From NCBI RefSeq assembly GCF_054482595.1, contig NZ_CM137008.1: 64,000 bases of DNA; one strand, given 5' to 3'. Of this stretch, positions 50,522 through 54,621 are shown in pieces; positions within the stretch are counted from its first letter, which is position 1, and every line of letters begins with the position of its first letter. The notes beneath the pieces are model-generated. The model did not search any database. It was given only the letters and a program-made list of their open reading frames with translations, and had not been told where the DNA came from. The position numbers were made by a program, and so were the translations under genes.

Positions 50522-50714
50522 TCACAACCCGAAGATGTTTCTTTCGATTCATCATCGTGTTGCGAAAATTTGAGAGACTCACGAACAACTCTCGTTGTTC
50601 AGTGTTTCAATTTTCAGCTTGATCCAGATTTTTAAAGAGCAAATATCTCAAACATCACCCGAAGATGAGTTTTGAGATATTAAGGTCGGCGACTTTCACT
50701 CACAAACCAGCAAG

Positions 50715-52548: not shown

Positions 52549-52561
52549 TTGTTAAAGAGCA
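52549..52561 (-). promoter_or_regulatory. rrn leader boxA antitermination element
   Basis: The - strand reads TGCTCTTTAACAA. Confidence 0.7.
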
Positions 52562-52597: not shown

Positions 52598-52745
52598 GTA
52601 TATTACGCTTTCCTCTTTCAGAGTCAACCCTGAATTTCAGGATTTTTCTCTTCAACCGAACCGGCTGTTTGTGTGAAGTGATTCACATCCGCCGTGTCGA
52701 TGGAGGCGCATTATAGGGAGTTCTCCGCAGGCCGCAATAGAAAAA
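52598..52745 (-). promoter_or_regulatory. rrnE tandem promoters P1 and P2
   Basis: On the - strand: P2 -35 TTGACT (52622-52627) and -10 TAATAT (52600-52605), 16-bp spacer; P1 -35 TTGCGG (52732-52737) and -10 TATAAT (52710-52715), 16-bp spacer. Confidence 0.75.
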
Positions 52746-52908
52746 TTGCAGAAAAATGACTGACTGCTGCATTCCCCAGCAAAACCCCGCTTTATACCTT
52801 TTTACGCACAGAGTTATCCACAATCATCAATGTAATTTCTGTATTTTTCCCACGGTAACCACTGTCAAAATTGTGATCACCATTGAAAGAGAAAAATTCG
52901 CGAGCGTT

Positions 52909-52924
52909 GCGCAAACGTTTTCGT
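52909..52924 (+). promoter_or_regulatory. PurR operator (pur box) of purHD
   Basis: GCGCAAACGTTTTCGT matches the 16-bp pur-box consensus; overlaps a TACAAT -10-like hexamer at 52925-52930. Confidence 0.75.
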
Positions 52925-53031
52925 TACAATGCGGGCGAAAAATAAGGATGCCCCGTTAGGGGCGTTAGCTGAGTTTTTCGCGAAAAATTCAGCTAACGCT
53001 CTCTGTAATAGTCAAATCCAGGGGATTTACC

Positions 53032-54621
53032 ATGCAACAACGTCGTCCAGTCCGCCGCGCTCTGCTCAGTGTTTCTGACAAAGCCGGTATCGTCGAATTC
53101 GCCCAGGCACTTTCCGCACGCGGTGTGGAGCTGCTGTCTACAGGGGGCACTGCCCGTCTGTTAGCAGAAAAAGGTCTGCCGGTAACCGAAGTTTCCGATT
53201 ACACCGGTTTCCCGGAGATGATGGATGGACGCGTGAAGACCCTGCATCCGAAAGTACATGGTGGCATTCTGGGCCGTCGCGGCCAGGACGATGCCATTAT
53301 GGAAGAACATCAGATCCAGCCTATCGATATGGTGGTTGTTAACCTTTATCCGTTCGCCCAGACCGTGGCCCGTGAAGGTTGCTCGCTGGAAGATGCGGTT
53401 GAGAACATCGATATCGGCGGCCCGACCATGGTGCGCTCCGCCGCTAAGAACCATAAAGATGTCGCAATCGTGGTGAAGAGCAGCGACTACGACGCCATTA
53501 TTAAAGAGATGGATGACAACGAAGGATCGCTGACGCTTGCAACCCGTTTCGACCTCGCCATCAAAGCCTTCGAACACACTGCCGCCTACGACAGCATGAT
53601 TGCCAACTACTTCGGCAGCATGGTTCCGGCGTACCACGGTGAAAGCAAAGAAGCCGCTGGTCGCTTCCCACGCACGCTGAACCTGAACTTCATTAAGAAG
53701 CAGGATATGCGTTACGGCGAGAACAGCCACCAGCAGGCTGCCTTCTATATAGAAGAGAATGTGAAAGAAGCCTCCGTTGCTACCGCAACCCAGGTTCAGG
53801 GTAAAGCCCTCTCTTATAACAACATCGCCGATACCGATGCGGCGCTGGAGTGCGTGAAAGAGTTCGCCGAGCCGGCATGTGTGATTGTGAAGCACGCCAA
53901 CCCTTGCGGTGTAGCTATCGGCAATTCCATTCTTGATGCTTACGATCGCGCGTACAAAACCGACCCAACCTCCGCATTCGGCGGCATCATTGCCTTTAAC
54001 CGCGAGCTGGATGCGGAAACCGCACAGGCCATCATTTCTCGTCAGTTTGTCGAAGTGATTATTGCGCCTTCCGCCAGCGAAGAAGCCCTGAAAATCACCG
54101 CCGCCAAGCAGAACGTACGCGTTCTGACCTGCGGTCAGTGGGGCGAGCGTGTTCCGGGTCTTGATTTCAAACGCGTGAACGGCGGTCTGCTGGTTCAGGA
54201 TCGTGACCTGGGGATGGTCGGTGCGGAAGAACTGCGCGTCGTCACCCAACGTCAGCCGACCGAACAGGAACTGCGCGATGCGCTGTTCTGCTGGAAAGTG
54301 GCGAAGTTCGTGAAATCCAATGCTATCGTCTATGCCAAAAACAATATGACCATCGGTATTGGCGCGGGCCAGATGAGCCGCGTGTACTCCGCGAAAATCG
54401 CCGGTATTAAAGCTGCTGATGAAGGCCTGGAAGTGAAAGGTTCCTCGATGGCTTCTGACGCGTTCTTCCCGTTCCGCGACGGTATTGATGCCGCCGCCGC
54501 TGCGGGCGTGACCTGCGTAATCCAGCCTGGCGGTTCCATCCGTGATGACGAAGTGATTGCCGCCGCCGACGAGCACGGTATTGCGATGCTCTTCACCGAC
54601 ATGCGCCACTTCCGCCATTAA
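53032..54621 (+). CDS. purH: Bifunctional AICAR transformylase / IMP cyclohydrolase
   Basis: 529 aa; [27 protein letters not shown]. Confidence 0.98.

Follow-up and report, generated by a model that had tools for sequence, protein, structure and literature searches.

The window analysed here is a 64,000 nucleotide stretch of the E. coli chromosome, whose segment 52700-53100 recurs in 5418 of 5426 complete genomes with an identity of at least 95%. The stretch carries the purH and purD genes, and the 16S gene of rrnE lies upstream of purH on the opposite strand. The genes and promoter elements to which the following description refers are:

52909-52924, plus strand: PurR operator, GCGCAAACGTTTTCGT, equal to the ChIP-chip motif
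52925-52930, plus strand: -10 element TACAAT of the purHD promoter, directly abutting the PurR operator
53032-54621, plus strand: purH coding sequence (open reading frame and annotation), the gene downstream of the leader
54633-55922, plus strand: purD, the next gene after purH

The operator sequence GCGCAAACGTTTTCGT is the PurR ChIP-chip motif that has been given for purH-purD (PMC3159470). The PurR box and the TACAAT hexamer are invariant in all 44 Enterobacterales leaders of the comparison set, a collection of purH loci that was retrieved with the PurH N-terminus. From this conserved pair the purHD start site can be placed at about 52937-52938, which would give a leader of about 95 nt enclosing a palindrome that had been located between the PurR box and -10 element (52909-52930) and the purH ATG at 53032 in a preliminary description of the sequence, and the coordinates bear this location out. 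The accessible parts of the Cappable-seq and the E. coli/Klebsiella start-site supplements hold no purH entry. Flannigan et al. reportedly mapped the 5' end of the purHD mRNA by primer extension in 1990 and are said to have described two dyad symmetries in the leader, either one excluding the other, and the E. coli hairpins themselves were thus probably already noted at that time. An ATG at 52949 could open a leader peptide, which was dismissed as it would read only M-P-R-stop, lies flush against the Shine-Dalgarno-like AAGGA and is not conserved.

Two further features lie on the upstream side of the promoter. A double DnaA box, TTACGCACA-gag-TTATCCACA, occupies positions 52802-52822 of the plus strand, and a perfect DnaA box is present at the equivalent position in 39 of 40 Enterobacterales purH loci. 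Binding of DnaA at E. coli purH has been published with a ChIP-seq enrichment of 124-fold and a mutational analysis, and the available part of that paper makes no mention of the breadth of conservation of the box across the Enterobacterales (PMC11317965). On the minus strand, positions 52600-52783 give a partial, sub-threshold Rfam match to the Yersinia sRNA Ysr197, with 62 bits where the gathering score is 167. The match covers the promoter and leader region of rrnE, and its cause is probably that the seed of the family includes rRNA leader sequence.

The palindrome spans the 38 nt from 52962 to 52999 and consists of GCGTTAGCTGAGTTTTTCG followed immediately by CGAAAAATTCAGCTAACGC. The repeat finder assigns it arms of 19 nt that are 95% complementary with a spacer of 0 nt, and the only position that departs from Watson-Crick pairing is G52973 opposite T52988, which corresponds to a G·U pair in plus-strand RNA and to an A·C mismatch on the minus strand. 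Both the 18 of 19 complementary arm positions and the wobble nature of the single mismatch had been proposed beforehand and agree with the sequence and with the repeat finder. An inverted-repeat scan over all centres of the window, with 19-nt arms and spacers of 0-8, reaches 18 of 19 matches at this site only, making it the strongest inverted repeat in the 64 kb, whereas the best score in 100 dinucleotide-preserving shuffles is 16 of 19 (mean 14.4) and none of the 100 reaches 17. Folding of the leader RNA, which had been suggested as a check, gives -41 kcal/mol for 52937-53050 compared with -23.1 +/- 3.4 for shuffled sequences (z = -5.3). The palindrome is confirmed as real and far beyond chance. 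The runner-up of the same scan, GAGTAAAAATGACTCGC ... GCGAGTCATTTTTACTC at 58716-58760, has 17 of 19 matches and an 8-nt spacer; by K-12 coordinates it is situated near zraP/zraS, where it may serve as a terminator or bind an activator.

The leader RNA can be divided into four elements, of which the palindrome forms the second, referred to as P2:

52950-52963, plus strand: P1, a GC-rich hairpin GCCCC-GUUA-GGGGC (predicted fold)
52962-52999, plus strand: P2, the main stem-loop of the purHD leader (fold, covariation and covariance model)
52998-53008, plus strand: the tail GCUCUCUGUAA, in which GCUCU is invariant in 34 of 34 species
53014-53028, plus strand: P3, a small hairpin AAAUCC-AGG-GGAUUU, specific to the Enterobacteriaceae (consensus fold)

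P2 in E. coli comprises 17-19 pairs that are closed by a CGCG or UCGCGA loop. Its lower 16 pairs, with the apex masked, were aligned across 34 species of Enterobacteriaceae, Erwiniaceae and Yersiniaceae together with Brenneria, and yield the arm consensus GCGUUAsCUGA ... UCAnsUAACGC-UCU. Over the 34 species these positions are 89.5% paired, as opposed to 29-43% in slid registers, and compensatory double changes occur in 8 of the 16 pairs against a shuffled mean of 4.1, with none of 500 shuffles reaching the observed values. Pair 7, for instance, switches between G:C, C:G and U:A among species. Both the conservation and the compensatory substitutions across purH leaders that the preliminary description had named as a check are therefore present. 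With regard to the strand, the alignment holds 30 G·U cells and 9 A·C cells, the variants of E. albertii and of a divergent E. coli carry C-to-U changes that retain U·G pairs, and a covariance model for which the full alignment was used scores the element of the window at 79 bits on the plus strand compared to 32 bits on the minus strand, all of which upholds the earlier preference for a stem in plus-strand RNA. Taken together, the covariation and the strand evidence show that P2 is a real, selected, plus-strand RNA structure. The same model detects nothing in the rest of the window and nothing in 46 further purH loci; it finds no copy in Vibrionaceae, Pasteurellaceae or Morganellaceae.

The conservation of P2 is unevenly distributed. 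Some bases are invariant beyond what pairing demands, namely U, A, C and A of the 5' arm, UAA.G of the 3' arm and UCU of the tail. At position 8 a conserved C faces G, C or U, and 17 of 32 distinct sequences leave it unpaired. Nearly all species have 32-36 nt between the -10 element and P2, and in most the 3' arm motif begins 42-50 nt upstream of the ATG, while the apex varies in length from 6 nt in E. coli to 70 nt in Rahnella. E. coli genomes carry the element once, and in 5381 of 5419 of them its identity is 99% or more.

It is highly improbable that the palindrome acts at the level of DNA or of the minus strand, either as a cruciform or protein-binding palindrome close to the strong divergent rrnE promoters, or as an antisense terminator formed by the reverse complement of P1 and UUAUUUUU. 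The near-perfect, spacerless symmetry and the AT-rich centre would suit the former and a terminator-like site called by the scan at 52963-52950 of the minus strand the latter, and the majority of the Enterobacterales contigs with purH end 250-740 bp ahead of the gene, which suggests that the rRNA-operon neighbourhood is conserved. An arm spacing that ranges from 0 to about 70 bp, combined with mismatches, nevertheless fits neither a dimeric DNA-binding site nor a cruciform, and the excess of G·U over A·C indicates plus-strand RNA. The U-run of the putative antisense terminator is not conserved outside the Enterobacteriaceae, and the element is retained where purH does not lie at a contig end (locus L023). 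An operator for a dimeric protein was likewise rejected, given that the conserved arm bases are split by an apex of 6-70 nt and have no fixed half-site spacing, and so was an operator of the RbsR, PurR or NagC type at the palindrome, where the spacing varies and the centre is not conserved.

Several other identities were considered and discarded. A dispersed repeat of the REP/BIME, ERIC or MITE-like kind does not agree with one locus per E. coli genome and the lack of a second copy in the window; the '2 places' per E. coli genome reported by the genome search are the two strands of one palindrome. A loose pattern scan for copies in viral contigs returned 90 matches, all of them chance. The stretch AGCUAACGC in the 3' arm of P2 occurs in 16S rRNA as well, and about 0.5 such 9-mers are expected by chance, so this sharing was set aside. 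Spot 42 is complementary to the CUCUGUA of the leader over 7-8 nt, which was treated as chance too.

P1 directly adjoins P2, and G52962 and C52963 at the base of P2 are common to both. It is predicted in nearly all orthologous leaders with varying stem lengths and loops, and is 93% paired within the Enterobacteriaceae, but its covariation is weak and not significant (121 of 500 shuffles are as high). The GCUCU of the tail can in turn pair with the GGGG of P1, resulting in a predicted extended form of P2. Extended P2 is favoured by E. coli in its minimum-energy fold and by 15 Enterobacteriaceae in their consensus fold, whereas shorter constructs and slightly more than half of the species favour P1 together with P2. 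As both partners of the extension, the G run and the pyrimidine run, are invariant, covariation speaks neither for nor against their pairing. Downstream of the tail, P3 contains a Shine-Dalgarno-like AGGGGA just 5' of the ATG at 53032, and an AU/CU-rich stretch between P2 and this Shine-Dalgarno hairpin is predicted to be single-stranded. Overall, the palindrome is the main stem of a conserved two-hairpin structure in the purHD leader, which very probably acts at the RNA level and in cis.

Two GGA motifs flank the hairpins on the plus strand, AAGGAU before P1 (52945-52950) and GGGGAU at the Shine-Dalgarno (53021-53026), which the hairpins would bring near to each other, as in a pair of CsrA sites. 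Not all genera conserve the upstream GGA. CsrA binding was rejected for this reason and because the CLIP papers do not name purH in their main text, as far as these were available.

The base of P2, with G-C, C-G and G-C pairs and a 4-nt loop, resembles the stem of a terminator. The preliminary description had stated that the palindrome is not a terminator, and this stands for E. coli, where the post-stem sequence TCTCTGTA holds 4 T in 8, the plus-strand terminator scan makes no call and a canonical intrinsic terminator was consequently rejected. It is less clear-cut elsewhere, since U-tracts with at least 5 U in 8 are present in 16 of 34 orthologs (5-6 of 8), among them the U-richer tails of Serratia, Pantoea and Rahnella. 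P2 and its pyrimidine tail could on these grounds constitute a pause site or a weak intrinsic attenuator that stops a fraction of the polymerases, in which case P1 would hold the two bottom pairs of P2 and so be a partial anti-terminator. Such an element would explain the GC-rich stem base with UCU immediately 3' of it, the overlap between P1 and the bottom of P2, and also the pattern of conservation, because terminators need their base and tail and leave the apex free. It would be reminiscent of the pyrBI/pyrE attenuators, in which a stable GC-based hairpin with a pyrimidine- or U-rich tail is located between promoter and gene and a second hairpin, further upstream, overlaps the stem at its base. 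The comparison is weakened by the absence of a conserved leader peptide, the weak E. coli U-tract UCUCUGUA (only 4 U in 8, uncalled by the scan), and an invariant C at the second position of the tail, where a terminator would favour U. In addition, the long irregular hairpins of other families make poor terminators. The E. coli Term-seq tables of PMC7815308, in the part available, list no 3' end in the purH leader, which, as far as these tables go, would count against an attenuator and likewise against the two-state element proposed below. Attenuation of this kind is therefore regarded as unlikely.

The tail is also open to being read as a putative boxA-type site for NusB/NusE (S10), at which the loading of Nus factors would modify the polymerase or repress translation. 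The gammaproteobacterial boxA consensus is GYUCUUUAANA with a critical C4, and the study that gives it also predicts a boxA upstream of prsA, another nucleotide-synthesis gene (PMC5725501). As in the boxB-boxA arrangement of rRNA leaders, lambda nut and the suhB 5' UTR (PMC5725501), a hairpin in the purH leader is directly followed by a GCUCU(U)UA element, and like the suhB boxA the purH tail is located less than 50 nt from the start codon and conserves the critical C4, which is invariant in 34 of 34 species. The likeness is closest in Mixta, Serratia and Rahnella, where the tail reads GCUCUUUA and matches the boxA core in 8 of 8 positions, and in Brenneria, whose GUUCUUUAA is the best match among the orthologs with 10 of 11. 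In five of six Pantoea/Erwinia species the tail is CGCUCUUA, and in E. psidii it is CGUUCUUA. CGCUCUUA is identical to the boxA of lambda.

On the other hand, a perfect match to GYUCUUUAANA is found in none of the species. In E. coli, GCUCUCUGUAA agrees with the consensus in 8 of 11 positions and with the rRNA boxA GCUCUUUAACA in 7 of 11, and the three departures from the consensus (U6C, A8G and A9U) are shared by all Enterobacteriaceae, in which this form is itself invariant. The suhB mutant C4T/T6C, which is inactive, contains the U6C change alongside that of C4, and G1 and C2 of the site are paired within P2. The resemblance was moreover noticed post hoc, and short matches of this type arise by chance: a loose boxA pattern, to which the rrnE boxA sequences of the minus strand also conform (leader, GCTCTTTAACA at 52550-52560; 16S-23S spacer, GCTCTTTAAAA at 50630-50640), was found 5 times where 3.5 matches are expected. 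purH is absent from the text, lists and supplements of the boxA/suhB paper (PMC5725501). A Nus-factor site is accordingly judged distinctly unlikely.

The length of the stem raises the question of processing by RNase III. The P2 duplex has 17-19 pairs, and as many as about 22 if the tail extension is included, which corresponds to the approximately two helical turns of an RNase III substrate, a long stem with a varying apex is present in all species, and cleavage of a duplex of about 19-23 bp could alter the stability or translation of the purHD mRNA. Leader hairpins that are cut by RNase III are known, for example between lambda nutL and the N gene, and the lambda N, rnc and pnp leaders resemble P2 in placing a long near-perfect duplex upstream of the ribosome-binding site. 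Base-specific conservation is unexpected for RNase III, which does not require the invariant bases, and the available part of an RNase III dataset contains no cleavage within the hairpin (K-12 4207565-4207602), although purH expression may have been low there (PMC5371410). The 'purH-rrsE' site of the same dataset, 4207874, maps to about 52690 in the rrnE leader. Cleavage by RNase III is, on balance, quite improbable as the function of the stem.

It has a small chance of being correct that the P1/P2 junction is a putative operator for a trans-acting factor, be it a protein, a small RNA or a metabolite, a reading that would also cover a functional replacement for the ZTP riboswitch. The gathering of conserved sequence at the helix junction and tail, with a free apex, is what such a site would look like, and so is the conserved C at stem position 8 that faces G, C or U. 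PurH consumes AICAR (ZMP), which it thereby clears and which is a product of both histidine and purine synthesis. The purH leaders of other phyla carry the ZTP riboswitch (pfl, RF01750), and P1/P2 has in common with it the position relative to the gene and the nature of a cis-acting RNA, but is a plain two-hairpin architecture without a pseudoknot or conserved loops. No covariance-model match to the riboswitch was obtained at E <= 10, and it was rejected as an identity for the leader. Rfam as a whole returned no relevant match at E <= 10 in 52600-53200, the lone hit being a chance match to mir-725 with 23.8 bits against a gathering score of 76, and at gathering score nothing was found in 14 other gammaproteobacterial purH loci, nor was there a match in the Yersinia or Vibrio purH leaders. 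The earlier statement that the palindrome could not be matched to a known regulatory site thus agrees with the finding that no Rfam family fits. Against a trans-acting factor, the stem in E. coli is a perfect duplex without a pocket, no multi-helix junction or pseudoknot is predicted, and the main text of the CsrA, Hfq and ProQ papers searched does not mention purH, insofar as these papers were accessible. We know of no binding partner of the purHD leader.

A hairpin in the purH leader is not confined to the enterobacterial families. In Vibrionaceae (loci L054, L059, L060, L061, L074 and others) the purH ATG is preceded at a distance of 27-44 nt by a long hairpin. Its base, GGUAUUUACCAAAA ... 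UUUUGGCAAAUAUC, is conserved and its single-base mismatches are fixed, the apex varies, and the 3' end consists of pyrimidines. It equals enterobacterial P2 in position and in these last features, with the exception that its sequence is unrelated and is missed by the enterobacterial covariance model; it also has no match in Rfam. The purH leaders of Pasteurellaceae are short and lack a hairpin. With an unrelated hairpin at the same place, selection for a long hairpin ahead of purH thus reaches beyond one sequence family.

The best single reading, proposed tentatively, is that of a purHD leader with two states by which elongation or translation into purH is tuned. The GGGGC sequence would pair upstream to close P1 or, alternatively, downstream with the bottom of P2 extended onto the CUCU tail. 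The state chosen would determine whether the pyrimidine tail is free or buried beside the ribosome-binding region, and exposure of the tail would in turn tune the share of transcripts that are elongated and translated into purH-purD, on top of the control of initiation by PurR. Conservation is concentrated at the junction and its flanks, namely in P1, whose distance from the promoter is fixed, in the 12-16 lower pairs of P2, and in GCUCU about 30 nt before the start codon. P1 and P2 share 2 nt and their minimum-energy folds differ by species between P1 plus P2 and extended P2, and the combination of fixed flanking distances, a variable apex and two partners for GGGGC fits a junction with two states. 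The weak covariation of P1, the perfect duplex of E. coli P2 with no internal loop for a ligand pocket, and the exclusion from P2 of the Shine-Dalgarno, which sits in a small hairpin of its own, count against it, as do the Term-seq tables mentioned above.

A passive structural role accounts for the leader data almost as well. In this case the stable hairpins would keep the leader locally folded and prevent mispairing with the ribosome-binding region, leave a single-stranded standby stretch before the start codon, or set the half-life of the mRNA, and neither a switch nor an effector would be involved. The great stability of the hairpin, the freedom of its apex, the single-stranded AU/CU-rich stretch ahead of the Shine-Dalgarno hairpin and the unrelated Vibrionaceae hairpin at the same position are all compatible with it, and neither a regulator nor a premature 3' end has turned up in the sources available. 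What it leaves unexplained are the invariant bases of the arms and tail, across families whose intergenic DNA is otherwise unalignable, and the fixed distance to the promoter; furthermore, a 5' end with 12-13 single-stranded nt is unlike that of a protective 5' hairpin. While fairly unlikely in itself, a passive role follows close behind the two-state reading, which remains ahead.

With respect to classification, P1/P2 does not show the defining features of the boxB-boxA, attenuator or ZTP riboswitch classes and is filed under none of them. It is best described, in general terms, as an unlisted conserved cis-acting leader RNA structure. Control of purHD is usually described as acting on initiation only, through PurR and lately also RbsR, PhoP and DnaA. 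Purifying selection on a leader RNA in four or more enterobacterial families implies that initiation is followed by a second layer of control. This layer is absent from Rfam, and in the papers searched no functional study of the leader was found, nor did an earlier account of the covariation, the variable apex, the invariant boxA-like tail or the Vibrio counterpart turn up. The two-state element may even be a purHD-specific RNA switch for a purine-pathway or growth signal, with ZMP/ZTP or folate stress, the availability of Nus factors and purine NTP levels as candidate signals, although the odds of this are long. If true, P1/P2 would fill the enteric counterpart of the role of the ZTP riboswitch upstream of purH, and in the Vibrionaceae a different hairpin, without relation to it, would have arisen to do likewise. 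Enteric bacteria are without the ZTP riboswitch, and signal-dependent behaviour of the leader would bear on how they handle AICAR/ZMP. As the element is short, single-copy and present in a genetically tractable organism, its function is directly answerable.

Among the orthologs, the apex of P2 in Erwiniaceae and Yersiniaceae (loci L022-L036) is made up of sub-hairpins that each consist of a pyrimidine run, a UAUA loop and a purine run, such as CUUCUCUAUAAAGAGGAAG. They are duplicated in Serratia and look like expansions inside the loop. Siccibacter colletis (locus L021) carries about 120 nt of extra sequence after the hairpin and tail, which places its hairpin 155 nt from the ATG compared to the usual distance of about 45.
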